Below the pieces are notes generated by a model, which searched no databases, had not been told where the DNA came from, and saw nothing but the letters and a program-made list of their open reading frames with translations. This document shows, piece by piece, positions 269 through 25,388 of a stretch of DNA of 32,000 nt; position 1 is the first letter of the stretch, and the number at the start of each line of letters is the position of its first letter. Both the position numbers and the translations under genes were made by a program. Source of the DNA: Geotalea uraniireducens Rf4 (GTDB lineage Bacteria; Desulfobacterota; Desulfuromonadia; Geobacterales; Geobacteraceae); NCBI RefSeq assembly GCF_000016745.1, contig NC_009483.1, positions 4,410,001 to 4,442,000 on the forward strand, given 5' to 3'.

Positions 269-995
269 CGTTTCCCCAACATATGTGTTGCATTTCCGAA
301 CTGTATCCGCCATCTCCGGCATAGACGATGAGGGGCGGCAGTACCGATAAATCCCCCCTCCGCCCCTTGACCAACTCTACGAGAAACATTCCCGCCCCAG
401 AGATGTCGTTGCCGTGCACCATACGAAGCCGCAACGGGGCGAGCTTCAGCAGAGCTGCCTCGGCAAAAAGCTCCACCAATCGGGACGGATGATAGATGAA
501 GCAGATCCTCCCCCCCGGTTTGACCAGGTATTTCGCCGCCGTCAGGAAATCGGTGAGGCATGCGGTAGATTCGTGCCGTGCCTTGTCCCGTCCGGCCCTG
601 GGGCTCACCCGACCGGTACCGGCTCTGCGGTAGGGGGGATTCGAAACGACCAGGTCAAAGGATGATACGGGAAACACCCCCTTCAAGGAGGTGATATCCG
701 CGGCCAGAATGGAAATCCTGTCGCCGAGGCCGTTGATACTGACGTTGCGCAAGGCCAAATCCGCCAGCAATGCCTGGAATTCCACCCCGGTAACGGTGAC
801 ATCCTCCGCCTCCCTGGCCAGGATCAGGGGGATGATGCCGCAGCCGCTCCCGAGGTCAATGGCCCGTTCGCCGGTCCTGATGGCGGCAAAGTCGCACAAA
901 AGAAGCGGGTCGAGGGAGAATCGGTAGCCGTCCCGCGGCTGGCCAATGCTCAGCCGGTGTCTGCGCAACTCGTCGACGGTTTCTTCACCTTTCAC
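225..995 (-). CDS. Class I SAM-dependent N6-adenine methyltransferase, tRNA1(Val) m6A37 TrmN6/YfiC-like
   Basis: 'GYRFSLDPLLL' N-terminus, SAM motif 'IDLGSGCGIIPLILA', catalytic 'VVSNPPYRRAG' (NPPY). GTG start at 995-993 lies inside the heptamer array, with AAAGG 6 nt upstream. GTGA overlap with the upstream stop. Confidence 0.85.
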   Translation of the reverse strand: MKGEETVDELRRHRLSIGQPRDGYRFSLDPLLLCDFAAIRTGERAIDLGSGCGIIPLILAREAEDVTVTGVEFQALLADLALRNVSINGLGDRISILAADITSLKGVFPVSSFDLVVSNPPYRRAGTGRVSPRAGRDKARHESTACLTDFLTAAKYLVKPGGRICFIYHPSRLVELFAEAALLKLAPLRLRMVHGNDISGAGMFLVELVKGRRGDLSVLPPLIVYAGDGGYSSEMQHICWGNDAEQQEDSSCFAGL

Positions 996-1009
996 CTTTC
1001 ACCTTTCAC
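984..1009. repeat. Heptanucleotide tandem array (TTCACCT)x3.7; GTGAAAG on the coding strand
   Basis: Read directly: units at 984-990, 991-997 and 998-1004, partial unit 1005-1009. The array contains the TGA stop of the YfhO-like gene (994-992) and the SD and GTG start of the methyltransferase (995-993). Confidence 0.95.
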
Positions 1010-3421: not shown

Positions 3422-3442
3422 TTTTATTACTCCGTTGTATAA

Positions 3443-3491
3443 GGGCAACCCTGTGTGGTTGCCCTGATTGGGCGGCCACATGGGGCCGCCC
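3443..3491. repeat. Twin GC-rich perfect hairpins (REP-like), in the 70-nt gap directly after a stop codon
   Basis: GGGCAACC-ctgtgt-GGTTGCCC (3443-3464) and GGGCGGCC-acatgg-GGCCGCCC (3470-3491). Both have 8-bp perfect stems and 6-nt loops. Neither strand has a U/T tract afterwards. Confidence 0.8.
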
Positions 3492-4607
3492 CTACTCTTC
3501 ACTCTTCACTGCCTTATAAATGTCCAGCGTCTCTCTGGCGGCCGCCTCCCAGGAAAAGGACTTCGCCCGGCGACGTCCCTGCTCCCGCATGGCCGTCGCC
3601 GTTTCTTCATTTTCTAGCACTCTGAGAAGCGCCGCGGCAACCTCCTCCACGGCCATGGGAGGGACGGCAATCCCCGCATCGCCCACCACCTCCGGCAGGG
3701 ATGTGGTGTTGGACGTTATCACAGGCACGCCGCACGCCATGGCTTCCAAGGGCGGCAGGCCGAACCCTTCGAAGAGCGACAGGTAGACGAAAACCCGTGC
3801 GCCGTCGTAAATAAAGGGGAGTTCCCCGTCGGGGACAAAACCGGTGAATACCACCTCGCCGTCGAGATTGAGCTCCCTGATCCGGCTGAACAGCCTGTCG
3901 TAAAGCCACCCCTTGCGACCGACGATGACGAGTTTCCCCGCAAATGCCCCCTTGCCTTTCAGCAGGCTGAACGCCTCGATGAGGGTGTCCAGGTTCTTTC
4001 GCGGCTGGATGGTCCCCACATAGAGGATGTAATCAGCCGGCAGCCCGTATTTCCCCCTGACGGCCGCGCCGGCAGCGGCATCACGGGACTCGATCATGGC
4101 AGGATCGAAACCGAGCATGATCGCCCTGATCTTTTCCGGCGCCACCCGGAAATCGGCCATGATCTCCTGCCTGGCGTGTTCCGAATCGGTGATGATGAAA
4201 GCGCTCCTCCTGGCGGCGATGGGTATCTGCAGCCGCCAGTAGATCCGCGCAGCCAGCTTCTCCGTTTCCGGGTGCTTGATGGGGATCAGGTCGTGCAGGG
4301 TGACCACCACCGGGCATGGTGCGAAATAGGGGATCGCGCTCTTCGGACAGTGGAGGATGTCCACCCGCTCCCTCTTGCAGGCAAGGGGGAGCAGCACATG
4401 CTCGCGCCAGAGCCGGGTGAGCGGGTTTTTGCCCGGCAGGACCATTTCCCGTGCCGCGGGGAATCTGCCCAAATGAACGGGATCGTTGTAGAAAACAATA
4501 TACTCGTTTTCGCGGTCAATGCGGAGCAGCGCTTCAAGCAGCCCCAATACATACGTCCGCGGCCCCCCTTGGGTGGAAATGGTTGAAGCATCAATGGCGA
4601 TACGCAC
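3492..4607 (-). CDS. GT4-family (GT-B) glycosyltransferase
   Basis: '[20 protein letters not shown]' EX7E-type motif. N-terminus '[11 protein letters not shown]...'. I choose GTG at 4607-4605, which has AGGAAA 6-7 nt upstream. The track ORF start at 4703 would overlap the upstream gene by 86 nt. Confidence 0.85.
3495..3510. repeat. Short heptanucleotide array (CTCTTCA)x2.3; AGTGAAG on the coding strand
   Basis: Units at 3495-3501 and 3502-3508, plus 'ct'. Encodes the last codons (...VKSEE) immediately before the TAG at 3494-3492. Confidence 0.7.
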
Positions 4608-6895: not shown

Positions 6896-7852
6896 CTAGC
6901 CATTGCGCCGCGTCCTGTCCACAAACCGGCGGCGAAAGATGGAGTAGAGCATACGCAGGTAGCGGATGGCCAGAAATAGCAGCACCGGCCGGCAGGGGCA
7001 ATAGTCGCGGTAGAGCTTGTAATTGGCCCGGAAATAAAAGGGGGAGCGGTAACTGGTCAGCATCTCTCTTACCCGCTCCCTGTTAAGCGCCTCGGTCCCG
7101 CTTGACACCGCAGTCCTGTTGTACACAACGCTTTTAGGCTCCGTAAGGAGGCGATAGCCGCGCCGCCGCGCCCTTAGTGAGAACTCCGCGTCCCCCTGGT
7201 ACTGGGGGCAGTTCTCCCGGTCGAAAAAACCGATCTCGGCGAACGCCGCCGCCGGAATCAGGGTGGAACTGCCGTGCAGCCAGTCGCAATCGCTGGTCCG
7301 GTCGAAATCAATCAGGTCGCGGCGGTTGTTGCGGTCCCTTATCTCCCCCACGTACCAGTTTATGACGCCGCCGAAGGAAAAGATGAAGTTCCGGTCCGAG
7401 TAGTCGTACATCTTCGAGGTAACGAGGCTTTTGGGGTGGCTCCGGGCGGTCTCCACCAGAGGCTCGATGAAGTCCGGCTCCACCACGTTGTCGTTATTTA
7501 TGGCCAGGATAAAGTCACCGCCCCGCCGCAAGGCCTCCCGGACACCGAGATTCGTGGCCCCCGACCACCAGAGGTTGCCGTCGCCCCTAACGATAGACAC
7601 TTGGGGAAAGCAGGCGGCGATGGCCTCCCTGGAGCCGTCGGTCGAGCCGTCATCTACGACGATGACCTCCAGATTCGGATACGTTGCGCACGCCATCGAT
7701 TCCAGAAAGGTAAGGGTTTCGTCCTTGCCGTTGTGGATCGGTACTACCGCTGCGACCTTGGGGAACCGAGGTTCGAGGAACGAGGTCCGAGGAACGAGGT
7801 ATTCACGCCGACACCAAACCCTTTGCCAGGTAGTCCTTGAACCCATCACCAT
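6896..7852 (-). CDS. GT2-family glycosyltransferase
   Basis: 'AAVVPIHNGKDETLTFLES...LEVIVVDDGSTDGS' GT-A motif. The only in-frame starts are ATG 7852, GTG 7849 and ATG 7846. ATG 7852 has AAGGA 6 nt upstream, supplied by the last ATAAAGG unit. The N-terminal ~30 residues are partly encoded by CCTCGNN heptamers. Confidence 0.8.
   Translation of the reverse strand: MVMGSRTTWQRVWCRREYLVPRTSFLEPRFPKVAAVVPIHNGKDETLTFLESMACATYPNLEVIVVDDGSTDGSREAIAACFPQVSIVRGDGNLWWSGATNLGVREALRRGGDFILAINNDNVVEPDFIEPLVETARSHPKSLVTSKMYDYSDRNFIFSFGGVINWYVGEIRDRNNRRDLIDFDRTSDCDWLHGSSTLIPAAAFAEIGFFDRENCPQYQGDAEFSLRARRRGYRLLTEPKSVVYNRTAVSSGTEALNRERVREMLTSYRSPFYFRANYKLYRDYCPCRPVLLFLAIRYLRMLYSIFRRRFVDRTRRNG
7767..7801. repeat. 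Degenerate heptanucleotide array (CGAGGNN)x5 inside the 5' end of the GT2 gene
   Basis: cgaggtt, cgaggaa, cgaggtc, cgaggaa, cgaggta read directly. 'cgaggaacgagg' occurs twice (7774-7785 and 7788-7799) and is the exact reverse complement of 7902-7913. Confidence 0.9.
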
Positions 7853-7859
7853 TCCGCGT

Positions 7860-7922
7860 CCTTTATCCTTTATCCTTTATCCTTTATCCTTTATCCTTTA
7901 TCCTCGTTCCTCGTGCCTTTAT
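7860..7922. repeat. Heptanucleotide tandem array (CCTTTAT)x6 + CCTCGTT + CCTCGTG + CCTTTAT; ATAAAGG on the coding strand
   Basis: Six perfect units at 7860-7901, then three more heptads to 7922. Contains the TAA stop of gmd (7893-7891) and the SD for the downstream GT2. Confidence 0.97.
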
Positions 7923-8886
7923 AGAGCTCCATCTCGCTCTCCACCATCTCGCGGATGATCTCACCCAAGGATTTTGTCCTGGCCCAGTGCAAACGGGTGC
8001 TGATTTTTGCCGGATTGCCGCACAGCTGCACCTGTTCCGCCGGGCGGAAGAACTTCGGGTCCACCTTGACATACCTTTCGTAGTCAAGGCCGAGACATGA
8101 AAAAGCCGTCGCCACAAACTCCCGCACGCTGTGGGTTTCGCCGCTGGCAACAACAAAGTCCTCCGGCGCATCAGCCTGGAGCATCAGCCACATGGCATTC
8201 ACATAGTCAGGTGCATAGCCCCAGTCCCGGTATGCGTCCAGGTTGCCGAGGGTCAAGGTATCCTGGAGCCCAAGTTTGATCCGCACTGCCGACGAGACGA
8301 TTTTCCGCGTCACGAACTCGTAGCCGCGGCGAGGAGACTCATGATTGTAAAGGATGCCGGTGCAGGCGAACATGCCGTACTGGCTCCGGTAGTTCTTCAC
8401 CAGGTGATAGCCGGACACCTTGGAGATGCCGTAGATGGAACGGGGATTGAACGGTGTCGCCTCGTCCTGCGGCGCATTGGTCACATTGCCGAACATCTCG
8501 CTAGTGCCCGCGAAGTAGAAACGGCAACCGGGCGCGAATTCCTTGATAGAAGCGAGGAGATAGTGGGTGCTGTTGACGTTGTTGTTCAATATGGAGATCT
8601 CATCCTCGAAGGAATAGCTGACGAAGCTGGAGGCGGCCAGGTGGTAACACTCATCGGGAATGACGTCCTTCACCGTCTTAATGATAGAGAGGACGTTGTC
8701 CAGGGAAGCAACGTGGAGGTGGATCCTGTCCGCAAGATGGCCAATGTTCTTCAGCTTGTGGGCGGTATCCTCGATGGCTGTCCGCCGGACGATGCCGTGG
8801 ACTTCATAGCCTTTCGCCAGGAGCAGTTCCGCCAGGTATGAGCCGTCCTGACCGGCCAAGCCGGTAATGAGCGCTTTTTTCTTCAT
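7891..8886 (-). CDS. gmd: GDP-mannose 4,6-dehydratase (short form), copy 1
   Basis: 'MKKKALITGLAGQDGSYLAELLL', 'GILYNHESPRRGYEFVTRKI', 'RDWGYAPDYVNAMWLMLQ', 'FFRPAE' are canonical Gmd motifs. The last ~9 codons are encoded by the heptamer array. Confidence 0.92.
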   Translation of the reverse strand: MKKKALITGLAGQDGSYLAELLLAKGYEVHGIVRRTAIEDTAHKLKNIGHLADRIHLHVASLDNVLSIIKTVKDVIPDECYHLAASSFVSYSFEDEISILNNNVNSTHYLLASIKEFAPGCRFYFAGTSEMFGNVTNAPQDEATPFNPRSIYGISKVSGYHLVKNYRSQYGMFACTGILYNHESPRRGYEFVTRKIVSSAVRIKLGLQDTLTLGNLDAYRDWGYAPDYVNAMWLMLQADAPEDFVVASGETHSVREFVATAFSCLGLDYERYVKVDPKFFRPAEQVQLCGNPAKISTRLHWARTKSLGEIIREMVESEMELYKGTRNEDKG

Positions 8887-9969: not shown

Positions 9970-11214
9970 CTATACGTCATCGATTATCTCTTGATATAAA
10001 TCCGCATACCTTTTCGCGACCCCATCCATAGCAAACTCTTTTTCCACCTTTTCCCGCGACATGCGACACAACCGTTCTCTCCGGGTATCATCGGCAAGGA
10101 CCCAGTCGATACCACGGGCAAAGTCGTTGGTGTCAAAGGAATGGGCAAGGTAGCCGGTTTGTTCATGGACAACAATATCGAGCAGTCCGGTGGAGGCAAA
10201 CGCCACGACGGGAGTTCCGCACGCCATTGCCTCTGACGCAGTCTGGCCAAAACTCTCCTGCATCGACGGAACGCACATGACATCTGCTGCGGCGTAAGCC
10301 AGAGTCAGGCTTATATCGTCATGCAGTTTACCCAGGCAATGAACCGGCAACGGTATATCCGATAAATCGGCAGGCTGTGAAGCACCAAAAACCAGCAATT
10401 CCGCTTTCTCCGACCAACCGTCTGCAACAACCTGCAAAGCTGACTTAAGGTGGTGGAAACCTTTATTGTGGTCACCAACTATTGTTGCACCGAACAAGAT
10501 CAATTTTTTATCCTGCGGCAACCCCAGGAGTTCGCGGGCAACCCCTTTATTCACTTGTTTGTAACGACTCAAGTCCAATCCATTGGGGATTACTTCGACG
10601 CGTGCTTCCCGGAACAGGGAGCTTGCCTTGACACAATCGCCCATCCAATGACTTGGCGCAACTATGGTCAAGTTCAACCCCTGCCAGGATTTCGCTTTTA
10701 GATTCCATTCCCAGCGCGTTAAATCGTAGTCTCTTTTAGAGCCAAGTTGTGGACAGGCGCCGCAAGAGTTGCAATAGCGCATACACTTACCCGGGAGGTT
10801 ACATCCGCCTGTAAAAGCCCATGAATCGTGCATCGTCCACACTAAAGGCCGGTTAAATTTTCGTAGCGCCGTTACGGGCACAAATCCACAGCAGATCCAA
10901 TGCAGATGCACCAGATCAGGAGCGATCCCCTCAATGGAGCCATGAATATTGCTGGGCGCCCAGGATACCCCCCACGAACTCTGCTGACGGTTGGGGTAAA
11001 ACTTCAAGGGCAAGAGATCAAGGTAGGTGCACAGCTTGTTGATCGCTATTCCAGGTAATCCCTGTGAACCTGTTACGGTCGAATCCTGGCTCGTTTTGTA
11101 CTGGACAAGCATCCGCGAATTGACATCTATACTTTGCAACCCTTTATGCAGACGATACGCGGCACGTCCAGCGCCTCCTTCAATATCGTAAGTGCTGATG
11201 TGGGCAATGCGCAT
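9970..11214 (-). CDS. GT4-family glycosyltransferase
   Basis: 'MRIAHISTYDIEGGAGRAAYRLHKGL' N-terminus and 'ESFGQTASEAMACGTPVVAF' EX7E motif. Confidence 0.85.
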   Translation of the reverse strand: MRIAHISTYDIEGGAGRAAYRLHKGLQSIDVNSRMLVQYKTSQDSTVTGSQGLPGIAINKLCTYLDLLPLKFYPNRQQSSWGVSWAPSNIHGSIEGIAPDLVHLHWICCGFVPVTALRKFNRPLVWTMHDSWAFTGGCNLPGKCMRYCNSCGACPQLGSKRDYDLTRWEWNLKAKSWQGLNLTIVAPSHWMGDCVKASSLFREARVEVIPNGLDLSRYKQVNKGVARELLGLPQDKKLILFGATIVGDHNKGFHHLKSALQVVADGWSEKAELLVFGASQPADLSDIPLPVHCLGKLHDDISLTLAYAAADVMCVPSMQESFGQTASEAMACGTPVVAFASTGLLDIVVHEQTGYLAHSFDTNDFARGIDWVLADDTRRERLCRMSREKVEKEFAMDGVAKRYADLYQEIIDDV

Positions 11215-11225
11215 AGACTTTTATC

Positions 11226-12401
11226 CTACACTAAAGATAGCTTTAAAAGCAATGAACAGGAGTCTTTCAATCGCTCTTTTGAGTGATTTCTCATATAACC
11301 TTCGTAATCCGGCCCAATGCTCTCGTCATCCGCCATACCTGTGGCAAGCTGGCGAATTGCCCTAATGCAGGCATCGACATCATCTTGCTTGATCACTTTC
11401 CCCAGCCTGAATTTTCGGACCCTTTCTGCCATGCAAAAACCATCACTGACTATAATGGCTTTTTTAAAACTAGCCGCTTTTGTCAGCAAATTACTGCTGT
11501 GATAAAACTTTTGATATGCGGCAAAGACAATATCGCTTGCGCAAACCAGCGCGTTAAAAGAAGGCTCATCAGGAATAAATCCTAAATGGAAAAAACAATT
11601 AGATGGACAGGAGGCAATGAAGTTTTCGATATGGTCCAATTCTTTCCTTGTGAAGGTATACTTGTAAAAAACCCCGGCAAAGACAAAAAACAATCCCTCG
11701 TCCACAAGTTTTTTTGCAACTTCAACTAACATCAGCGTTCCTTTTCGCTTGTCAATACATCCGAAAAGGCCAACGATCTTCCTGCCTCTAGCTCTCTCCT
11801 TTATTTGTCCCACGACAGGATAATTCATATCTGGAGCCGATAAATCTGCAAAATCAGGAAAGGAGATTACTGGCTTGGCGAGTTCCCTTTCGAGTGTCTC
11901 TTTGACGCCCTCGTCAAGTAAGGCAACTGATTTGCAGCCGGAACTAAATAATGGAGCGTCACGCACTGGGGTCGGTACCCGCAAGCGCTCCGGAGCAAAA
12001 TAAAGACCAGACCAGACATATGGGAAAACAGCGTCCACAATCCAAGGTTTAAGATGTTTGGCAAAGTACCCATCTAGATAAGTAAAAAACACCAAGTCAG
12101 GCAAAATACCGGTATTTGCCGCTGCCTTCTTTATTGCCAAGGCAGCAGCCTTCCACTGTCTTGTAGTTTTGACCACCCCGGGAAGGAAAGGCTGACATAT
12201 CGGCTCCGTATACTCATATGGGCAAAAGCGCCCAGCCATTTCCCCACAATTCTCTGTTATCCAGTCACCAACTTCAACGGGATTCGGACAGAAGACAACA
12301 ACGTTATAGCCCAATTCCAGTATTGTTTCAGTAAGCAACTTAACGTATGTCGGGTGATGTCCGGTCCAGACTCCGTCAATCAATGCGATGATTTTAGTCA
12401 T
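11226..12401 (-). CDS. Divergent GT-B-fold-like protein (putative glycosyltransferase), function unknown
   Basis: Start placed at ATG 12401 (MTKIIALIDG...), preceded by AGGAG. Two Rossmann-like halves ('KIVGLFGCIDKRKG...FVFAGV', 'SSNLLTKAASFKKAIIVSD') but no clear EX7E motif. Confidence 0.5.
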   Translation of the reverse strand: MTKIIALIDGVWTGHHPTYVKLLTETILELGYNVVVFCPNPVEVGDWITENCGEMAGRFCPYEYTEPICQPFLPGVVKTTRQWKAAALAIKKAAANTGILPDLVFFTYLDGYFAKHLKPWIVDAVFPYVWSGLYFAPERLRVPTPVRDAPLFSSGCKSVALLDEGVKETLERELAKPVISFPDFADLSAPDMNYPVVGQIKERARGRKIVGLFGCIDKRKGTLMLVEVAKKLVDEGLFFVFAGVFYKYTFTRKELDHIENFIASCPSNCFFHLGFIPDEPSFNALVCASDIVFAAYQKFYHSSNLLTKAASFKKAIIVSDGFCMAERVRKFRLGKVIKQDDVDACIRAIRQLATGMADDESIGPDYEGYMRNHSKERLKDSCSLLLKLSLV

Positions 12402-12433
12402 GAAACTCCTGGCGGACCCTTTCCGAACCGGAT

Positions 12434-12586
12434 TCAAAACCAATGTTCAGGAATGAGAATTTCGGCTTGATTCAGCGTCTCAAACAGTGCTTCATTCGCC
12501 ACTATCCTCTTACCAAAGCGAGATTTGTGCCGAAACGGATTGGCTTCATACGGGTAGCATTGAATGCCGCAAGATGGCAGCAGAGA
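12434..12586 (-). pseudogene. Decayed C-terminal fragment of an rve (DDE integrase-core) transposase
   Basis: My translation of the minus strand gives '...YEANPFRHKSRFGKRIVANEALFETLNQAEILIPEHWF*'. The stretch 'EALFETLNQAEILI' resembles the conserved '...E(I/L)F.TL.EA..LIE.WR..YN' tail of IS3-type transposases. It is truncated and has no start codon. Confidence 0.4.
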
Positions 12587-12646
12587 TCATAGGTATAGTT
12601 TAGGTTAGGTTAGCCCCCAAGATCTCCACTTAAAGATAAACTTGGT

Positions 12647-13609
12647 TTATATCAGTTTAAACCATCGCCTCGTGGATCGTCTCTTAGGCTTAATAAATTT
12701 ATAAAATAATACCCACACTATATCTAATAAACTTATAGATACAGCTTTTTTTGTATAATTACTTAGCCAGAGAGATGGCAATAGAAATTTTCGCCCTTCA
12801 TAGTACTCACGTCTCCACTCAAAAGCATAAACTTTACCTGTTGTATTGACATTCAAGTACTGTTCTGCAAACCAGATTCTGGCCTGCCTATAGCATCTAT
12901 TAATATAATTCGATTTGTCACTTATGGTAATAGATCCTTCATGCTTTCTAAAGAAAGAAAGCGGTTTAGAAACAAATGCTATTTGCGCGTATTCTTTAGC
13001 AACGAGCAAATATATTAAAAGATCTGGACCTGCACCATGCTCATAAAAATTTTTGATTGTTGGAGATGGTATTTCTTCCACTAGATTTTTTCTCAGGTCA
13101 TCAGTCCTGAAAATGGCACATCCTGGAGAATATGGAACATTACCTGCAAACAATGACTCCTGGATAAAGTATGAAGAAGGCAATTTCCCCGTCTTCTCTG
13201 CTAATCCATACTGCTCTTGCCCTGTCCAAGGTTCTGTACCCATTATCGCTAGAGTAAAAACAAAACCTACTTCTTCATCACATAAAAAAGGAAGCGTTTT
13301 TTCTAAAAAAAGGGGATCAATAAGGTCATCTGAAAAAAGGATCTTACCAAAACAACCTCTTGCTTCATCAATGCAACGCTGCCAATTTCGGACAGGGCCG
13401 ATGTTGGTTTCATTACGAAAGATTCGAATGCGCGAGTCCTGTCGGGCGAACGTTTTACATACTTCCCAAGTCTTGTCTGTACTGGCATTGTCAACCACAA
13501 TGACTTCAATATCAGTTATGGTTTGTTCAATTGCAGACTGGATGCAAGGCCCAATAAAGGACTCTCTATTATAAACTGGTATCAGTATGCTAACTCTTGG
13601 GATAATCAT
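12647..13609 (-). CDS. GT2-family glycosyltransferase (AT-rich, probably foreign)
   Basis: 'VSILIPVYNRESFIGPCIQSAIEQT...IEVIVVDNASTDKT'. Hand-counted lines give 28-38% G+C. Confidence 0.88.
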   Translation of the reverse strand: MIIPRVSILIPVYNRESFIGPCIQSAIEQTITDIEVIVVDNASTDKTWEVCKTFARQDSRIRIFRNETNIGPVRNWQRCIDEARGCFGKILFSDDLIDPLFLEKTLPFLCDEEVGFVFTLAIMGTEPWTGQEQYGLAEKTGKLPSSYFIQESLFAGNVPYSPGCAIFRTDDLRKNLVEEIPSPTIKNFYEHGAGPDLLIYLLVAKEYAQIAFVSKPLSFFRKHEGSITISDKSNYINRCYRQARIWFAEQYLNVNTTGKVYAFEWRREYYEGRKFLLPSLWLSNYTKKAVSISLLDIVWVLFYKFIKPKRRSTRRWFKLI

Positions 13610-13689
13610 TTCAATAACAACAGTCCTTTTCTGCAGATGACGGAGTTAATATTTTTGCTGCAAGTGAAGTTTGTCTTATTATTAGTTCC

Positions 13690-15027
13690 TTATTCCACGG
13701 CACTCAAGGCTACCCTTTTTCTACGCAGAACACACCAAGGAAGTACCCAGGCTGCCGTCAGCGAGAACGAGGCGATAAGGGCATAAACTATTCCTGCCAC
13801 TCCGAACCTGGGAGCTAGGGATACCTGGAGGAGTACAGTAATGACCGCCTGGGCCGGGATATAGATGACAAAGGGACGCAGGTAGCTCATGCTCTGCAGA
13901 ACCATGGCAAAGGTATCGCTCCAGATGCGTATTACGTTATAGCCACCCATAATGACAATAAACAGTACCGGAACCATAACCGCCTTACCCGGCGCAAGGA
14001 GGTGAATCAACTCTGGCATAAAGAAAGCAAGCAGCAGGGTCGCTCCTGAAAGGAGCAGCACTCCCATGACAATATATTGCTTCACGTAGCCCATCACCAC
14101 ATGCCAGTCATTCCGGGCCACCGCTTCAGCACAAACCGGCCATACAGCAATCAGAAGGGCTGTGTAAATAAAATAAATCAGTCCGAATATTTTAGATGTC
14201 AGGTTGTAGACGACAATTTCATTGGCCGGTAAAAAACGCGCCATCACCAAATAGTCCACCTGGAGCACCCCTGCCGCCATGATAGCGGAAAGCCAGAATT
14301 TAAGCCCCCGTTTCATCAATGGCCACAATATCTCCCGCTTGACAGAACTGCTCCGCTGCAGACTTCCTGTAAACTGCAGCAGGAATGCCACAGCAGGAAG
14401 CATCCCTGCGGGCCCAAATGCGGCGACAAGGCTCCAATACAACTTGTGTTCAAGTGGGCTCCGCGCCACAAAAACAATCGCAGCAAAACTGATAAGAGAC
14501 GCTACAGCCGGCACTACGTTTGCCAAATATCCTTTTTGCTCGGCGTACCATATCCGATAGGCAATCCCGCCGAAACAGGTCGCTATCGATATCACTCCTG
14601 TGATGAAAAAATGTCGTGCCTTTTCAGCATCGTTTAGGAACGGAAACCCCTTTAAGATGAGCGGCGCCAAGAAGGGACTGGCGAAGAACAGGAATAAAAT
14701 GCTTAGTAACATGAGAAAGATGGCGATGACCCCCGCCATCGCAATGAAATCCTCGTAGGGTTGCTTCCCTGCCCGCCGTTCGGAAATATGGTTCTGCAGG
14801 CTCGTGCCAACCCCCATGTCTGCCAAGAGGTACCATCCCTGTAAGCCCCCCAACACTGCATAGAGGGCATACTGTTCCGTACCAAGACCTTGAATCAATA
14901 TACGAATACTAAACAGCCCCACCACCGCCGTTACCAGACGGCTGATCCATGCACTAGCCGCAACCAGCAGATGGGAAGGTATGCGGTTCAAGATTCCCGG
15001 TTTAGCATTGACGGTCAAAGATGTCAC
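13690..15027 (-). CDS. wzx: Wzx-type oligosaccharide flippase (MOP superfamily)
   Basis: Polytopic throughout. The N-terminus '[30 protein letters not shown]' is typical of polysaccharide-biosynthesis/Wzx proteins. GTG start at 15027 overlaps the tyv stop; TTG at 15018 is an alternative. Confidence 0.8.
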
Positions 15028-20316: not shown

Positions 20317-20931
20317 TCACTTATTCTTAGGCCCGTCGGCATGGTATATCATCCCGGGATCGACCCCCAGCCGCAGCAACTCCTGCCGCAACGCAGCCCC
20401 CCTTTTCAACGAGGTAACGACAATCCGGTGATTGCCGGACAGAAGCCCCATCGCCAAGGTGGCCACCGGCCTGTCGAAAAAGGTGCCGCCGGCTGCATCA
20501 TCATCCATGACCGCCACGAGCTCAAGCCCCGTCTCCCCAAGGGAGAGGTAGGCGATCTCCGCCACCTCATCCACCCCGCAGAAGGCGACCTTTCTTATGC
20601 CTTGGGCGTGCAGCGAGCGGAACAGGACGAGGTAGTCCTGACGGGCGATGGTATAGAGACTGGAAAAATATCCAAGGTGCTGGTAGGCGAGACGGCTTTT
20701 TTCCGCGATCCCCTGGGGGGTCAGGAGGTAGGCGTAACGGTTTCTGGGAAAGTTTTTGACCCTGACGAACCCCTTGCCGACCAGGTTCTTCAGGTAGGAA
20801 TTGACGAGACCCAAGGCAATGCCGAGCCTTCGGGACAGTTCCCGCTGGGAAATGGGTTCTTCCGTCGATATTTCCGCCATGAGCAGCAAGGCGCGGTAAC
20901 TGTCCAGGGATTTTTCATCGATATCGTTCAC
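20317..20931 (-). CDS. Winged-helix (MarR/EPS-associated type) transcriptional regulator fused to a Rossmann-like C-terminal domain
   Basis: 'ISQRELSRRLGIALGLVNSYLKNLVGKGFVRVKNFPRNRYAYLLTPQGIAEKSRL' fits the EPS-locus MarR pattern as I recall it. The C-terminal 'RKVAFCGVDEVAEIAYL...LELVAVMDDD...HRIVVTS' looks like a CoA-binding/Rossmann-type module. GTG start at 20931, no SD. Confidence 0.7.
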   Translation of the reverse strand: MNDIDEKSLDSYRALLLMAEISTEEPISQRELSRRLGIALGLVNSYLKNLVGKGFVRVKNFPRNRYAYLLTPQGIAEKSRLAYQHLGYFSSLYTIARQDYLVLFRSLHAQGIRKVAFCGVDEVAEIAYLSLGETGLELVAVMDDDAAGGTFFDRPVATLAMGLLSGNHRIVVTSLKRGAALRQELLRLGVDPGMIYHADGPKNK

Positions 20932-20944
20932 AAAATGAACGATA
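20922..20944. promoter_or_regulatory. Perfect 9-bp inverted repeat TATCGTTCA-N5-TGAACGATA over the regulator's start codon (candidate operator)
   Basis: Read directly: 20922-20930 and 20936-20944 are exact reverse complements. The GTG start (20931-20929) spans the boundary between the left arm and the 5-nt loop. Confidence 0.45.
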
Positions 20945-20967
20945 CATCAACCTGGAAAGATTAGCAA
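20939..20967 (-). promoter_or_regulatory. Candidate sigma70-type promoter TTGCTA-N17-TATCGT for the regulator/ddh operon
   Basis: On the minus strand, -35 TTGCTA (20967-20962), a 17-nt spacer, then -10 TATCGT (20944-20939). The -10 overlaps one palindrome arm. A start site here would give a nearly leaderless GTG. Confidence 0.3.
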
Positions 20968-20975
20968 TAAAAAAT

Positions 20976-21060
20976 CTGGGAACTGGGAACTGGGAACTGG
21001 GAACTGGGAAGTCCATTACCGATCCCCGATCCCGGATCCCAGTTCACCGGTTTTCTTCAG
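20976..21060. repeat. Composite element copy 1: (CTGGGAA)x5 + conserved 31-nt G/C-run core with (CCGATCC-like)x3
   Basis: Five perfect units at 20976-21010. Core 'taccgatccccgatcccggatcccagttcac' is at 21017-21047. The TAA stop of the DUF2304 gene (21018-21016) lies between array and core. On the coding strand the array is followed by ATTTTTTATT. Confidence 0.95.
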
Positions 21061-21399: not shown

Positions 21400-22113
21400 C
21401 TACCTCCGATACAATTGACGGTTCCTGAGCAGGGTAACGACTATGGAAAGACACATCTTGAACATGTAATAAAGCGGTTTGAAACCGCTGTGCATGGTCT
21501 TCCCCGCAGCATTGGCAAACATGCGCACCGGAATTTCCCTGATCCTGAATCCGGCCAGGTTCAGGGTTATCAGCATATCCGCATCGGGATAATCGCAGGG
21601 AAAGACGTCGGTGGTGAAAAACCGCATGACGTCGCGGTTAAAGGCCTGGTAGCCGGAAGTGGGGTCGGATATGGTCCGGCCGATCAGGGAGGAGACCAGT
21701 TTGCGAAAGAAGAGTATCCCCAGCCGGCGGGAAAAGGATGGACGGTAGCTTTCCACCCCCAGAAAACGCGAACCGACGACAAAATCCGTGTCTCCGGCTA
21801 CAACCGGCCTCATCAGCTCGGGGATGAATGCCGGGTCATGCTGGCCGTCGCCGTCGATCTGCACCAGGAAGTCGTAACCCTTGGCGTAAGCGAACTTGTA
21901 AGCGGTCTGGATCGTCACGCCATATCCCATGTTGAACGAGTGTGAAACGACGATGGCTCCTGCCGCCGCGGCTTCCCGGGCAGTGCTGTCTTTGGAGCCG
22001 TCATTCACCACCAGGATATCGAAATCGGGGACAACGCGCCGCACGTTTTCGATGACACGGGCAATCACCCCCCCCTCGTTGTAGGCAGGTATCACGACAA
22101 TGGTTTTGGACAT
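21400..22113 (-). CDS. GT2 polyprenyl-phosphate glycosyltransferase (GtrB/DPM1/ArnC-like)
   Basis: 'IVVIPAYNEGGVIARVIENV...ILVVNDGSKDST', 'LVQIDGDGQHDP' (DxD). Short soluble-plus-C-terminal-tail format typical of lipid-carrier sugar synthases. Confidence 0.8.
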   Translation of the reverse strand: MSKTIVVIPAYNEGGVIARVIENVRRVVPDFDILVVNDGSKDSTAREAAAAGAIVVSHSFNMGYGVTIQTAYKFAYAKGYDFLVQIDGDGQHDPAFIPELMRPVVAGDTDFVVGSRFLGVESYRPSFSRRLGILFFRKLVSSLIGRTISDPTSGYQAFNRDVMRFFTTDVFPCDYPDADMLITLNLAGFRIREIPVRMFANAAGKTMHSGFKPLYYMFKMCLSIVVTLLRNRQLYRR

Positions 22114-22127
22114 TCAGAAACCTTTTT

Positions 22128-24116
22128 TCAATCCGGGAACTGGGAACTGGGAACTGGGTTTTTACCGATCCCCGACCCCAGATCCCCGTTCACTGACTTC
22201 AGCAGCTTTGCGGCAAACTCCGGATTCAGCGACTTAAGGATTACATATTGGTCGGTGGCCTTCTGCGTCTCCTTGCTCGCCGCATAGGCCAAGCCCAGAT
22301 TATAGTGGGCCTCGCTCAGGCGTGGATTCATGGCAATGGATTTTTCATAATTATCTATGGAGTCAGCAAGCTGTCCCATGGAATCATAGGCCAATCCAAG
22401 GTTGTTATAGCCGAGGGCAAACCATTCGTTCTGGTATGCGGCGTTCATGCCCATGCTCGCATCAAACAACTCATAGGTCGGGCTGTAACGGCCGGCATAG
22501 GTCCCGAGCTGGCCAAGCGCTATGCCGATATTGTTCCACGCATCGGGATGCCCCGGAGAAATGCCTATGGAGCGGATCAACGCAGGTATCGCCTTTTTCG
22601 GCTGATGCTTCTTCAAATAGGCATAGGCCAGGTTGTTCCACGGCCGCGACTTGTCGGGGGACTTTGCCGCCACATCCTGCCAGAGGGTCGTCTCGTCCTG
22701 CCAGACCATGTTGCGCCTGAAGGTTGCCGTTGCAAGGGAGACGGCGACCAGCAGCAGGGCGATGAATGCTATTCCGGCAATCTGTGGCCTCCGCACAGCC
22801 AATCGGTCCACCGCCAGCACCACGGCCGTTGACAGCGCCATGAAAAATCCGATCGACGGCAGGTAGACCCTGTGCTCGAAGATAACGTCAACGATCGGGA
22901 TGACGCTCGACTCAACCGCCAGGGCGATGAAAAACCAGAAAATGCCGAAGGCTGTGAGGCGGTAAACGGCGGTCGGCGGTCGGTGGTCGGTGGTCGATGG
23001 TTGATGGTAAAAGGCGGTCGGAGGTCGGTGGTCGGTGGTCGATGGTGAACTATCCAACGTAGAACGTAGAACGTAGAACGTAGAACGATAAACAAAATAA
23101 ATCCCCACGCCGAAGATCGCCAGCAGCAGCAGGAAAGAGAGGAACACAGGGGCATTGAAAAAGGAGTGGGCCACCGGAAAGTCATGGTCAAGGTTCTGCC
23201 CTACCGGGAAAAACAGCAGCCTGAGATAGGTGACGATCACCCGGAACTGGGTGAAGAGATAGTCAAGCCGTGGCATCTCCGTCTGGACCATGGTTGCCGC
23301 CTCCAGCCTCCCCAGGAGCTGTCCCGCCCCGGAGGAGCCGAGCATGCTCAAAGGGATGATGGCCAGGGTGAGGAGAAATGCACCGATGAACATGACCCGC
23401 TTGGCGATGCTCCCCCTGAAAAACATGAACTCGTAAAGAATCACCGTGAACGGCAGGGTAAAGGCGATCTCCTTGGTTTTCATGGCAAGGACCGCCGTTA
23501 AGAGCGACAGGAGATAGCAGGCTGCGGCAAACAGCTTTCCCCGCCGGCCGCCCCCCCCCTGCTCCAACCGCGCCATGATGTAGAGGACGAGGGAACCAAT
23601 GTAGAACATGGCTGCAAGTGAAGTGAAGCGCTGGACAATGTAGGTTACCGCCTGGGTCTGGAGCGGATGGGCAACGAAGAGGAGCGCCGCAAACAGCGCA
23701 ATCGGTCCGCTGAAGCGCCCCCTCTCCCCCTCTTCCGCCGGAGCGAGCAACGGGGTCCTGAAAGTGAGGGTCACCAGGGTATAGACAAGGAGGGCGGTCG
23801 CAAGATGGATCGCCAGATTGACCAGATGATAGCCGAAGACATCGAGACCGTTCAGCCGGTAATTGACGGCAAAGGTGAAGTCCCCCACCGCCCGGCTCCC
23901 CTTGACGGCGAAGGGGTCGGCGAACGGATCCACGTTTCTCACGACCGGGTTGCCGAGGATGTTGGCAATATCGTCGAAGTTGAAGGTGGCGGTGAAGGTG
24001 TTGGAGTAGGCCAGAAGCCCAAGGGAGATAACGAGGAGAAGATGAAGCACGGTCGCAAACCGCGTCCGCCGGTAAACAAAGTCACTGAATCTGCTTGTCA
24101 TGGATAGAGAGTTCAC
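22128..24116 (-). CDS. PMT/TMTC-like GT-C membrane glycosyltransferase with C-terminal TPR domain
   Basis: 'FNFDDIANILGNPVV' acidic loop after the first helix and 'EHRVYLPSIGF' match PMT_2/TMTC-type enzymes. C-terminal TPR-like repeats include 'WNNLAYAYLKKHQPKKAIPALIRSI', 'AWNNIGIALGQLG', 'YNNLGLAYDSMGQLADSIDNYEKSIAMNP' and 'AHYNLGLAYAAS'. GTG start at 24116 has AGGA about 7 nt upstream. Confidence 0.75.
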   Translation of the reverse strand: MNSLSMTSRFSDFVYRRTRFATVLHLLLVISLGLLAYSNTFTATFNFDDIANILGNPVVRNVDPFADPFAVKGSRAVGDFTFAVNYRLNGLDVFGYHLVNLAIHLATALLVYTLVTLTFRTPLLAPAEEGERGRFSGPIALFAALLFVAHPLQTQAVTYIVQRFTSLAAMFYIGSLVLYIMARLEQGGGGRRGKLFAAACYLLSLLTAVLAMKTKEIAFTLPFTVILYEFMFFRGSIAKRVMFIGAFLLTLAIIPLSMLGSSGAGQLLGRLEAATMVQTEMPRLDYLFTQFRVIVTYLRLLFFPVGQNLDHDFPVAHSFFNAPVFLSFLLLLAIFGVGIYFVYRSTFYVLRSTLDSSPSTTDHRPPTAFYHQPSTTDHRPPTAVYRLTAFGIFWFFIALAVESSVIPIVDVIFEHRVYLPSIGFFMALSTAVVLAVDRLAVRRPQIAGIAFIALLLVAVSLATATFRRNMVWQDETTLWQDVAAKSPDKSRPWNNLAYAYLKKHQPKKAIPALIRSIGISPGHPDAWNNIGIALGQLGTYAGRYSPTYELFDASMGMNAAYQNEWFALGYNNLGLAYDSMGQLADSIDNYEKSIAMNPRLSEAHYNLGLAYAASKETQKATDQYVILKSLNPEFAAKLLKSVNGDLGSGIGKNPVPSSQFPD
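22134..22202. repeat. Composite element copy 2: (CTGGGAA)x3.6 + conserved 31-nt core
   Basis: Units at 22134-22158. Core 'taccgatccccgaccccagatccccgttcac' at 22163-22193 matches copy 1 at 28 of 31 positions by hand alignment. The flanking 'cttcag' is also shared. Here the GT-C/TPR ORF reads through the whole element. Confidence 0.9.
22968..23089. repeat. Intragenic heptanucleotide arrays: two blocks of GGCGGTC/GGTGGTC/GATGGTN units, then (GAACGTA)x4-5
   Basis: Block 1 at 22968-23009 (6 units), 'aaa', block 2 at 23013-23047 (5 units), 'aactatc', then caacgta + gaacgta x3 + gaacgat (23055-23089). Encodes '...STFYVLRSTLDSSPSTTDHRPPTAFYHQPSTTDHRPPTAVY...'. Confidence 0.95.
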
Positions 24117-24219
24117 CCGGAAATCCTGTCAGAATTGAAGGTAATGATCATTTGAAAATAGCAAAAAACTATTTTTGCCACGAATAACACGAAAAGCATC
24201 TAATGTATAGGCCCTTTTT

Positions 24220-24372
24220 GGCGGTCGGCGGTCGGCGGTCGGCGGTCGGAAGTCAACCCATAGGACTACAGTCGGCGGTCGGCGGTCGGAAGTCAACCCA
24301 TCGACCATCGACCATCGACCATCGACCATCGACCACCGACCACCGACCACCGACCACCGACCGCCGACCGCC
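24220..24372. repeat. 153-nt composite heptamer palindrome: (GGCGGTC)x4 ... (GGCGGTC)x2 ... (TCGACCA)x5 (CCGACCA)x3 (CCGACCG)x2
   Basis: Units mapped by hand. 'ggcggtcggcggtcggaagtcaaccca' is directly repeated (24234-24260 and 24274-24300). 24357-24372 is the exact reverse complement of 'ggcggtcggcggtcgg', which occurs in several registers in the left arm. Starts 2 nt after the GT2 stop. Confidence 0.97.
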
Positions 24373-24374
24373 TC

Positions 24375-25388
24375 TCATCTATCCAGCAATTCCTTGAAAG
24401 ACATCCGGTATCGCTGCAACAGGCGGGCCATCTCCCTGCCTGAGATTCTCCTCTTTTCCATCACCAGCGCCCGTTTTTTCAGCATGGCCGGCGCACCGCA
24501 CAGTGCGTCCCTGGTCCCTTTGGCGATCGCCTTGAGCAGGGCATTGCGGGAGCCGCTTGCAAGGAATTCCCCACCGGAGCCGCTGGCGAAAATGACCGCC
24601 CGCGCCTGCTCCAGGTAGCGGACCAGGGTGAAAAACGGAACCAGCAGCAGCATAGCGAGGGGAAAGCACTTCAACGCCACCCAGTAATGGTTACGTTCCA
24701 CCAGATAGAGCTTGAACGGCGAAAAGACCCCGCCGGTCCTGGAATACTTGTGATAGACCACCGCCTGCGTGGCGAGGAGCGCTTGCCACCCCGCCAGCCT
24801 GCACCTTAGCCCCAGGTCGGTATCCTCGGCATAGGCGAAAAAATCGTCGTCGAAGAAACCGGTCTCGTCCAGCATTGTCCGCCGGTAGAGGGCAACGCAG
24901 GCGCTGGGGAAGAGGATCTCCTCAACCTCTGCCATATTCATGGTTGAATAGCGCTTGAGGCGGAACCTCCCGCGGGACATGCCGTCGCGGCAGACGCCAT
25001 GGCCGAGGGAATCGATCCGGTCCGGCTCGTCAAATGAACAGATCCGGCTCCCCACCATCCCCACCCGCGGGTCGCTGTCCGCCACGGCAACAATGGTTGC
25101 CAGCCAGTTTTCATCAGCCCTGGTATCGTTGTTGAGGGCAACGATATACTCGCCCGAGGCATGGGTAAGGCCGACGTTGTTGCCGGTGGCAAAGCCGGTG
25201 TTTTCCTTGAGCTCGACGAGCTTCACCCAGGGGTAGCGCTCACGGAGAAACCCTACAGACCCGTCGGAAGAGCCGTTATCGACGATGATCACCTCGAAGT
25301 CCTGGAAGCTCTGGGCCGACAGGCTGTCCAGGCAGACAGCCAGGTGCTCCAGGCCGTTCCAGTTGACGATTATTATGGAGACTCTCAT
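24375..25388 (-). CDS. GT2-family glycosyltransferase (rhamnosyltransferase-like)
   Basis: 'VSIIIVNWNGLEHLAVCLDSL...FEVIIVDNGSSDGS...NTGFATGNNVG'. ATGA overlap with the upstream gene. Confidence 0.88.
   Translation of the reverse strand: MRVSIIIVNWNGLEHLAVCLDSLSAQSFQDFEVIIVDNGSSDGSVGFLRERYPWVKLVELKENTGFATGNNVGLTHASGEYIVALNNDTRADENWLATIVAVADSDPRVGMVGSRICSFDEPDRIDSLGHGVCRDGMSRGRFRLKRYSTMNMAEVEEILFPSACVALYRRTMLDETGFFDDDFFAYAEDTDLGLRCRLAGWQALLATQAVVYHKYSRTGGVFSPFKLYLVERNHYWVALKCFPLAMLLLVPFFTLVRYLEQARAVIFASGSGGEFLASGSRNALLKAIAKGTRDALCGAPAMLKKRALVMEKRRISGREMARLLQRYRMSFKELLDR

Follow-up and report, generated by a model that had tools for sequence, protein, structure and literature searches.

Heptanucleotide repeats are over-represented in many bacterial genomes, yet their origin and use are unexplained. 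The survey of 2007 in which they stood out is reportedly that of Mrazek et al. in PNAS. The heptanucleotide repeats of Calothrix PCC 7601 are the cyanobacterial short tandemly repeated repetitive (STRR) sequences. As summarised in two later papers (PMC4692102, PMC4679880), the survey of 2007 found heptameric repeats over-represented among bacterial simple-sequence repeats and polymerase slippage was proposed as their cause; the first of these papers also cites three tandemly repeated heptanucleotides in Calothrix PCC 7601. For Geobacter metallireducens, the paper of Aklujkar et al. (2009, PMC2700814) describes the 49-copy Gmet_H4## family of four GGGACCG/GGACCGG repeats, located within and between genes, and catalogues paired five-unit MTYCTGA heptamer sites on opposite strands. 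The GGGAATC repeats of Xanthomonas and the GGGGA(C/T)T repeats of Nostoc were studied as G-quadruplex-forming sequences (Rehm et al. 2015, PMC4692102). The element described here is a composite of two opposed heptanucleotide arrays. It lies in a stretch of 32,000 nucleotides (nt) of Geotalea uraniireducens Rf4 (assembly GCF_000016745.1, contig NC_009483.1, positions 4,410,001 to 4,442,000), referred to as the window, and occurs at the 3' ends of two unrelated genes, one encoding a DUF2304 protein (copy 1) and one a GT-C-like membrane protein with TPR repeats (copy 2).

With a probability of roughly two in three, the two copies are paralogous, slippage-prone hairpins of inverted heptamer arrays, of which copy 1 would act as a terminator stem and copy 2 would be neutral or of modest effect, the protein tails being by-products. 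The composite would have passed from one gene junction to another through template switching or gene conversion, and polymerase slippage would add units to its arms or remove them. At copy 1, the opposed arrays would serve as the terminator stem ahead of the promoter/operator region of a MarR-like gene. Where the arms overlap the 3' ends of open reading frames (ORFs), accidental extensions of the proteins would result.

Results

Each composite is an imperfect hairpin of two inverted heptanucleotide arrays and measures about 70–85 nt (Table 1). On the coding strand, a G-rich arm of three GGGGATC-like units is followed by a short loop with a stop codon and by a C-rich arm of (TTCCCAG)n. The loop of copy 1 reads GGTAA-TGGAC and that of copy 2 GGTAA-AAAC. 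The two G-rich arms, or cores, are identical at 29 of 32 positions, which bears out the repeated core of the first-pass annotation (28 of 31 by hand alignment). A degenerate pattern of this 32-nt core, allowing up to three mismatches, was found at these two sites only in the window, against 0.00 expected from 100 shuffles. The core is a period-7 array as well; Tandem Repeats Finder (TRF) reported the unit CCGATCC with 3.1 units at 93% and 3.4 units at 76%. On the opposite strand, the C-rich arms form (CTGGGAA) arrays of 5.0 and 3.4 units (22135-22158 for the latter), each with a match of 100%; the earlier counts were 5 and 3.6 units.

The arms are complementary over 23 nt at 83% and over 32 nt at 78%, and the core is indeed an inverted relative of the array, as had been proposed. 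The perfect pairing of AACUGGGA with UCCCAGUU that had been put forward along with it applies to copy 1 but not to copy 2, which reads AACGGGGA. Register-variable hairpins had been foreseen too, and many alternative registers were predicted: the minimum-energy structure makes up only 0.004 of the ensemble in copy 1. The hexamer 'cttcag', described before as flanking both cores, is present at both sites (21055-21060 and 22197-22202) but probably belongs to the coding flank. It stands 7 nt from the core in one case and 3 nt in the other, lies in coding sequence that continues upstream of the element (KLK in DUF2304, LLK in GT-C) and is not retained in the related loci L127 and L147. It was rejected as part of the element on these three grounds and, judging from the alignments, probably lies outside it.

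Translation gave the two C-termini that had been read from the sequence before, namely ...GELGSGIGDR* for DUF2304 with the TAA in frame and ...NGDLGSGIGKNPVPSSQFPD* for GT-C/TPR. The stretch LGSGIG common to both is not a shared peptide module. Whichever of the three frames is read, a perfect heptamer array yields one and the same 7-residue repeat (GDRGSGI for GGGGATC, FPVPSSQ for TTCCCAG), and the two LGSGIG stretches begin 5 and 12 nt after GTGAAC, that is, 7 nt or one unit out of register. Peptide conservation was rejected as the source of LGSGIG for these two reasons; since a heptamer array encodes the same repeat in every frame, the shared stretch is a consequence of periodicity.

At E ≤ 1e-10, the DUF2304 protein had 695 homologues. 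Among the named ones, that of Geotalea toluenoxydans comes closest (89% identity), and others are found in Geobacter argillaceus and in metagenome-assembled genomes of Geobacteraceae. After ...LRHEFE, both the length and the content of the tails are hypervariable among 120 homologues, and numerous tails resemble translated G-rich heptamers (RGPGTGDR, GPGAGDR, ERGTRNEERGTRKP, ERGTRNEERGTRKPRTSNLEPRTSL). The tail is missing in L147 and L125. The GT-C tail is an extension of 16–17 residues relative to the orthologues, and more distant GT-C homologues terminate approx. 8–10 residues past FAAxL. Neither tail is conserved among the relatives compared, and orthologues that lack arrays and still keep the tails, as ordinary coding conservation would produce them, were looked for in these relatives and not found. 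At both copies, the changes are confined to residues past the conserved Pfam domains. Both proteins are lengthened because the hairpin arms overlap the 3' ends of their ORFs, and the tails are best read as by-products of this overlap.

Seven related loci (L125 of G. toluenoxydans, L127, L128, L144, L147, L148 and L151) were compared with the window, six of which cover the end of DUF2304. At this end, the window has three G units, TAA and five C units, followed by ATTTTTTATTGCTAATC. L127 (protein 93% identical) has a window-like architecture with a G-rich arm of approx. four units (GGGGAAC-AGGGATC-GGGGGTC-GGGGAAC), a TGA stop and two C units. L144 (92%) has GGGGATCGGTAA, then further G units (approx. 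twelve in total) and five C units. The C-rich arm thus counts 5, 2 and 5 units and the G-rich arm 3, ∼4 and ∼12 in the window, L127 and L144, respectively. In L148 (84%), approx. 20 units of GGCGGAC/GGTGGAC (GGYGGAC) oppose CGACCGN units. L147 (93%) has no arrays and instead a conventional hairpin, CCGTGA-N11-TCACGG, between an A-tract and ATTTTCT. L125 has no arrays either, and L128 has a degenerate G-rich stretch.

The end of the GT-C gene varies in the same manner. The window and L147 have the same composite with 3.4 C units and the same tail. L144 has one C unit fewer (2.4), and a shift of frame turns its tail into ...SSRIEKRFLCPKP*. GGCGGTC-like units, (GGATAAAGGAACGA)2 and (CTTAGAA)3 are found in L151 (TPR region 90% identical), (GGTGAAA) units and (CATAGAA)3 in L148, and (GGTGATT) units, (GGTGAATAGTGATT)6 and (CGAACTT)5 in L125 with a spacer of 146 nt. 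In L128, the stop lies 8 nt ahead of the GT2 ATG and there are no arrays. The flanking genes are 84–93% identical while the junction arrays turn over. Both junctions are therefore hot spots where arrays arise, switch flavour, change their length and vanish. The first-pass annotation had proposed a module repeated at two gene 3' ends that alters protein C-termini. Both points agree with the comparison, as presence, absence and unit number of the arrays change the tails in close relatives. In L144 (3-587, 572-1285), with one TTCCCAG fewer, the GT-C ORF extends 16 nt into the GT2 gene. The annotated stop positions at these junctions vary with array length.

Copy 1 is most likely an intrinsic (Rho-independent) terminator stem at the end of the GT-C/GT2/DUF2304 unit. 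This assignment is based on the layout of A-tract, stem-loop and U-tract, on the position at the end of the operon and on the predicted hairpin with U-tract in most relatives. Copy 1 comes after the final gene of a co-directional group and lies directly upstream of the region that controls the following gene. Its coding-strand hairpin has a predicted energy of -37.7 kcal/mol (z = -1.4), and its minimum-energy fold pairs the A-rich tract with the U-tract; L147 shows a like arrangement. A hairpin with U-tract was also predicted at the DUF2304 end of L127, L144, L147 and L148. The stem is of one array flavour in the window, L127 and L144 and of another in L148, and the conventional 6-bp stem of L147 was predicted at -20.8 kcal/mol. 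The T-rich tract at this end is retained in all six related loci that cover it. It is followed by ATTGCTAAT in most loci, by GTTGCTAAT in L147 and by ATTGCCAAT in L148, and beyond it a conserved palindrome covers the start codon of the MarR-like gene.

Several observations weigh against a terminator. No convincing hairpin was found in L125 and L128 at the site orthologous to copy 1. A simple terminator scan of the window, restricted to loops of 3–8 nt and contiguous stems, returned five sites and neither copy among them; the bulged stem and the long loop exceed these rules. The coding-strand z-scores are modest for both copies, as shuffled G/C-rich sequence folds well too. The antisense strand of copy 1 folds better than the coding strand (-47.9 kcal/mol, z = -4.3). 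The stop codon of copy 1 is in the loop, so that a ribosome terminating there would sit on part of the 3' arm. Copy 2 is without evident function. Its coding-strand hairpin was predicted at -33.3 kcal/mol (z = -2.1), but no U-tract follows 3' of the stem; instead the stem is followed by GGAUUGAAAAAAGG and the start codon of GT2. Translation of the GT-C ORF runs through both arms. Copy 2 is probably neutral or a minor to modest element of mRNA structure. No Rfam family was matched at gathering score anywhere in the window.

The palindrome ATCGTTCA-N5-TGAACGAT at 20923-20943 overlaps the start codon (GTG) of the MarR-like gene. L125, L127, L128, L144 and L147 retain it in the form TGTTCA-N4-5-TGAACA. 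It is probably the operator of the regulator itself.

The two copies are related by copying, since they have non-periodic parts in common: the GGTAA(AAAC) loop, the boundaries and the order of the unit variants. At the loop, copy 2 reads GGGGATCGGTAAAAACC and the copy 1 of L144 reads GGGGATCGGTAAAACC. Metagenomes of the JGI collection were scanned for an arm-gap-arm pattern. The scan gave 15 loci, 13 of which were chance matches in coding DNA. The two real composites (L135, L140) are located at the birA-coaX junction of Geobacter-like contigs, in an orientation opposite to transcription. L135 GTTTTTACAGATCCCCGATCCCC matches the loop and arm of copy 2 at 21 of 23 bases (counted by eye). As the birA-coaX junction also carries it, the composite appears to have reached at least three kinds of junction. 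Viral contigs gave no match. Copy 2 may be the older of the two, given that L147 has it together with a conventional terminator in the position of copy 1. The spacer of copy 1, GGTAA-TGGAC, may have arisen by internal deletion of a long G-rich arm like that of L144 (...GGTAA|AACC...GGGGA|TGGCC...).

Transposition of a small non-autonomous mobile element between gene ends, with the heptamer periodicity as a mere feature of its arms, is the alternative that survives best and is still improbable. Such an element would resemble a MITE (miniature transposable element with inverted repeats) or a repetitive extragenic palindromic (REP) hairpin. The composite is an imperfect inverted repeat, its two copies 1.1 kb apart have a common non-periodic loop and common boundary bases, and its presence varies between close relatives, L147 having copy 2 and not copy 1. 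The near-identical loop and arm at the unrelated birA-coaX junction, in opposite orientation and on another contig, and the local, inverted duplication of other array modules in the window would also fit. However, neither copy is flanked by a target-site duplication, the most being a 4-nt TGAA microhomology at copy 2. No fixed termini were seen, and the ends merge into sequence that is present at related junctions without the composite, namely GTGAAC (L125) and GGATTTT (L147) for DUF2304 and GTGAACGG (L151) and ATTGAA (L128) for GT-C. The arms vary from 2 to 12 units as slippage would have it, and the window contains no transposase or RAYT gene. The low yield of real composites in the metagenome scan and their absence from the viral contigs count against mobility as well. 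Given the lack of target-site duplication, fixed ends and transposase, and the occurrence of the boundary bases without the composite, microhomology-guided template switching or gene conversion fits the copying better than transposition, without being decisive. The remark 'possibly once mobile' in the first-pass annotation remains a conjecture: copying is supported, but a signature of transposition was not found.

Copying by template switching or gene conversion may extend to other array modules. Period-7 arrays dominate the window with 14 arrays covering 468 nt, compared to four of period 6 (71 nt), none of period 8 and one of period 9; 20 of 25 TRF rows have a period of 7, 14 or 21. L125 shows the same dominance. 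Of 15 arrays, nine are no more than 40 nt away from a stop codon; such sequence accounts for 7% of the window (P ∼5e-6). The complex upstream of the GT-C gene (24218-24372) consists of a gradient array, GGCGGTC > GGTGGTC > GATGGTC, with two complementary CGACCGC arms after it. Its gradient module (24298-24372) recurs twice, inverted, at 22967-23046 in the GT-C ORF, 1.3 kb away, which makes it the second array module copied locally as a whole. The junction complex at 7762-7911 supplies the tail ...GTRNEDKG* of a GDP-mannose dehydratase-like gene (7891-8886; read from the sequence by eye). The composite does not stand alone as a novelty. Period-7 arrays crowd the gene junctions of the window and its relatives, and it is one of them.

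Some further arrays were observed. The flavours GGATAAA and GGAACGA co-occur at the GT-C end of L151 (1235-1275) and at the dehydratase end of the window (7762-7911); heptamer flavours are thus common to different loci and genomes. At 984-1009, a coding-strand array (GGTGAAA)3.7 holds GTG and TGA in each unit. Inside it, ORF 992-3502 ends with a stop that overlaps the start of ORF 225-995, and the flavour of the array also makes up the GT-C end of L148. The internal loop of GT-C that carries arrays is variable and shorter in orthologues; PSTTDHRPPTA is duplicated in the window, and L125 has a different 7-residue repeat in the same loop (SPVTNHQ/SPITNH).

Arrays of the type (CCCCGAT)n are widespread. 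A scan of a genome collection with the pattern CCGATCCCCGANCCCNGATCCC gave, among the matches listed, hosts in Acidobacteriota (Vicinamibacterales), Chloroflexota, Planctomycetota and other groups; the cyanobacterial hosts among these matches are heterocystous and include Fischerella and Westiellopsis. An inverted G-rich partner was present within 150 nt for 21 of 93 listed arrays and for 1 of 93 control flanks. A protein search with concatenated six-frame translations of both copies, a query insensitive for short low-complexity peptides, gave two weak matches, one of which was a plain (NWELGTG)n array.

Table 1. Positions of the composites, genes and further arrays in the window.
Feature	Position	Strand	Remarks
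Junction complex	7762-7911	-	(GAGGAAC/GAGGTCC) vs (CCTCGTT) inverted arms, (TAAAGGA)6.6 alongside
MarR-like regulator	20317-20931	-	Next gene after DUF2304
Copy 1 U-tract	20966-20975	-	AUUUUUUAUU; directly 3' of hairpin, after last CCCAG
Copy 1 C-rich arm	20976-21010	-	(TTCCCAG)5; (CTGGGAA)5 on + strand; pairs with G-rich arm
Copy 1 spacer	21011-21015		TGGAC
TAA stop of DUF2304	21016-21018	-	In frame, inside copy 1 core
Copy 1 G-rich arm ('core')	21016-21047	-	GTGAAC-TGGGATC-CGGGATC-GGGGATC-GGTAA; encodes ELGSGIGDR end of DUF2304
DUF2304 gene, 126 aa	21016-21396	-	Pfam domain ends at residue 108; array encodes tail beyond
Copy 1 A-rich tract	21049-21058	-	GAAGAAAACC; 5' of hairpin
GT2 glycosyltransferase gene	21400-22113	-	Between copy 1 and copy 2; ATG 14 nt downstream of GT-C stop
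TGA stop of GT-C ORF	22128-22130	-	
GT-C-like membrane protein, C-terminal TPR repeats, 662 aa	22128-24116	-	
Copy 2 loop and C-rich arm	22131-22161	-	AAAAC + CCCAG(TTCCCAG)2TTCCCGGAT; translated NPVPSSQFPD
Copy 2 G-rich arm	22162-22193	-	GTGAAC-GGGGATC-TGGGGTC-GGGGATC-GGTAA; GT-C/TPR ORF reads through as VNGDLGSGIGK
Heptamer arrays inside GT-C ORF	22961-23087	-	Variable loop; includes (CTACGTT)4.6
Inverted heptamer-array complex	24218-24372	-	Intergenic, upstream of GT-C (spacer 24117-24374); touches no ORF
Further GT2 gene	24375-25388	-	

The window as a whole is a polysaccharide biosynthesis cluster with glycosyltransferases, sugar-nucleotide epimerases and dehydratases and an aminotransferase. 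In the part around both copies, every gene is on the minus strand. Within the cluster, a low-GC island at 11000-14000 (0.42–0.45 vs ∼0.58 elsewhere) contains glycosyltransferase genes and a 445-aa protein (13690-15027) without Pfam match. It was probably acquired horizontally.

Exact matches to window proteins were found only on short Logan contigs (SRR9436595, SRR9436596), and an exact look-up of the GT-C protein gave no record. The contigs L001 and L122 (SRR9436595) end inside arrays of at least 32 nt, namely 20976-21010, 23056-23087 and 7859-7904. Such breaks were rejected as a sign of extra genomic copies, given that arrays beyond the word length of the assembler, which was assumed to be about 31 nt, break contigs alone.

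Discussion

Alternatively, the arrays may be DNA or RNA signals that modulate the polysaccharide genes, either as G-quadruplexes of (GGGAACT)n on the template strand or as sites of a regulator or of a single-strand-binding, cold-shock-type protein. Counting both strands, the window has only three canonical G-quadruplex (G4) motifs (at least four G3 tracts, loops of 1–7 nt), two of which are the arrays of the copies (20978-21001 and 22135-22158, on the + or template strand). The near-identical GGGAATC repeats of Xanthomonas were studied as G-quadruplex-forming, and inverted pairs of them were noted (PMC4692102). The Geobacter heptanucleotide tetramers are annotated as putative global regulatory elements in PMC2700814, and CspB binds heptamer direct repeats (discussed in PMC4679880). 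A sequence-specific signal is hard to reconcile with the wholesale exchange of flavours at the same junction (GGTGATT, CGAACTT, CATAGAA, CTTAGAA, GGYGGAC). Furthermore, the G-rich arm of the mRNA has only three G3 tracts, and copy 2 of L144, with 2.4 units in its C-rich arm, has too few for a G4. This explanation is considered quite improbable.

It is very unlikely that the arrays are contingency (phase-variation) loci in which gain and loss of units is selected for switching or remodelling surface-polysaccharide enzymes, including their C-termini. Unit number differs between close relatives and shifts the frame at the end of GT-C in L144, further heptamer arrays are present in the variable loop of the GT-C ORF, and, according to the introductions of PMC4692102 and PMC4679880, surface-polysaccharide loci belong to a gene class under simple-sequence-repeat control in pathogens. 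An on/off switch is not provided by copies 1 and 2, though, as they alter only residues past the conserved domains, and arrays are equally common at junctions that touch no ORF (24218-24372). Phase variation is possible for the arrays within the GT-C ORF (22961-23087), where a change of units by a number that is not a multiple of three would shift the frame.

An independent origin of both copies by slippage from similar seeds at each site, for which GTGA/GTGAAC and GATT at junctions without the composite (L125 and L147 for DUF2304, L151 and L128 for GT-C) and the rise of (CCCCGAT)n arrays in many phyla could be cited, is hardly credible for cores that agree at 29 of 32 positions with a chance expectation of 0.00 and for composites with a common partner array, loop (GGTAA / GGTAAAA(A)CC) and unit order.

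Paralogous hairpins of inverted arrays, copied and then modified by slippage, thus remain the preferred reading. A wider claim, namely that inverted heptamer-array hairpins are a distinct, self-propagating class of repeats which is copied without a transposase and then changed by slippage, is tentative and rather unlikely. Pointers to it are the paralogous copies, the loop of L135, the inverted gradient module, the flavours common to L151 and 7762-7911 and the excess of inverted partners over control flanks. Such a class would be a recurrent source of terminator stems, intercistronic structures and new C-termini of proteins.

With two junctions traced through seven related loci, the comparison is compact and well controlled, and the arrays turn over faster in it than the surrounding genes. 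On the basis of the predicted folds, opposed arrays may replace an ordinary terminator stem, with ORF ends extended or frame-shifted as a side effect. Two cautions follow for annotation. A short peptide that recurs at the ends of unrelated proteins can be nothing more than an artefact of periodicity. Arrays of this kind fragment short-read assemblies, shift annotated stops and may hide similar elements in metagenome data. If copying of whole composites proved to be general, structured repeats could spread without a transposase.

Compared to known systems, copy 1 resembles Rho-independent terminators in its G+C-rich stem-loop with a U-tract directly 3' and an A-tract upstream, in its position at the end of a co-directional gene group and in the architecture that most relatives examined retain while the stem sequence changes. 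It differs from the usual ones in its stem of approx. 25 pairs, which is periodic, bulged every 7 nt and register-variable, and in its coding 5' arm with the stop in the loop; copy 2 has no U-tract. Like REP sequences, bacterial interspersed mosaic elements (BIMEs) and MITEs, the composites are short imperfect palindromes at gene ends, are present in more than one copy and vary in presence between relatives. Unlike these, they have no fixed ends, target-site duplication or linked transposase that could be found, and their arms are variable tandem arrays.

The surveyed heptamer and STRR repeats have the period of seven in common with the arrays of the window, and likewise are mostly intergenic, occur in many flavours per genome and change rapidly in length. 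Those reports treat single arrays, whereas in the window two opposed arrays form a hairpin over ORF ends and the whole composite is duplicated. The Xanthomonas and Nostoc repeats are G-rich heptamers with four-base loops and a G-quadruplex motif, are intergenic and differ in length from one close strain to another; examples of pairs in inverted orientation that could form stem-loops were noted there, too (PMC4692102). They differ in taxon and unit, and no role at ORF 3' ends or as terminator was proposed for them; in the window, the G4 is a motif only.

The Gmet_H4 family is from the same bacterial family and has nearly the same unit (GGGGACC vs GGGGATC). Tails of DUF2304 homologues such as RGPGTGDR would be encoded by the exact GGGGACC unit of the Gmet_H4 type. 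In the accessible part of PMC2700814, the Gmet_H4 elements are described as four tandem units with a proposed regulatory role. Beyond this description, as far as that part goes, the element of the window has a complementary second flavour, a stop in the loop, a terminator context and local paralogous copies. The element is thus a variant of the heptanucleotide repeat families described in Geobacter, to which it adds opposed arrays of two flavours with a stop in the loop, the position of a terminator stem, paralogous copying of the whole composite and an effect on two ORF ends.

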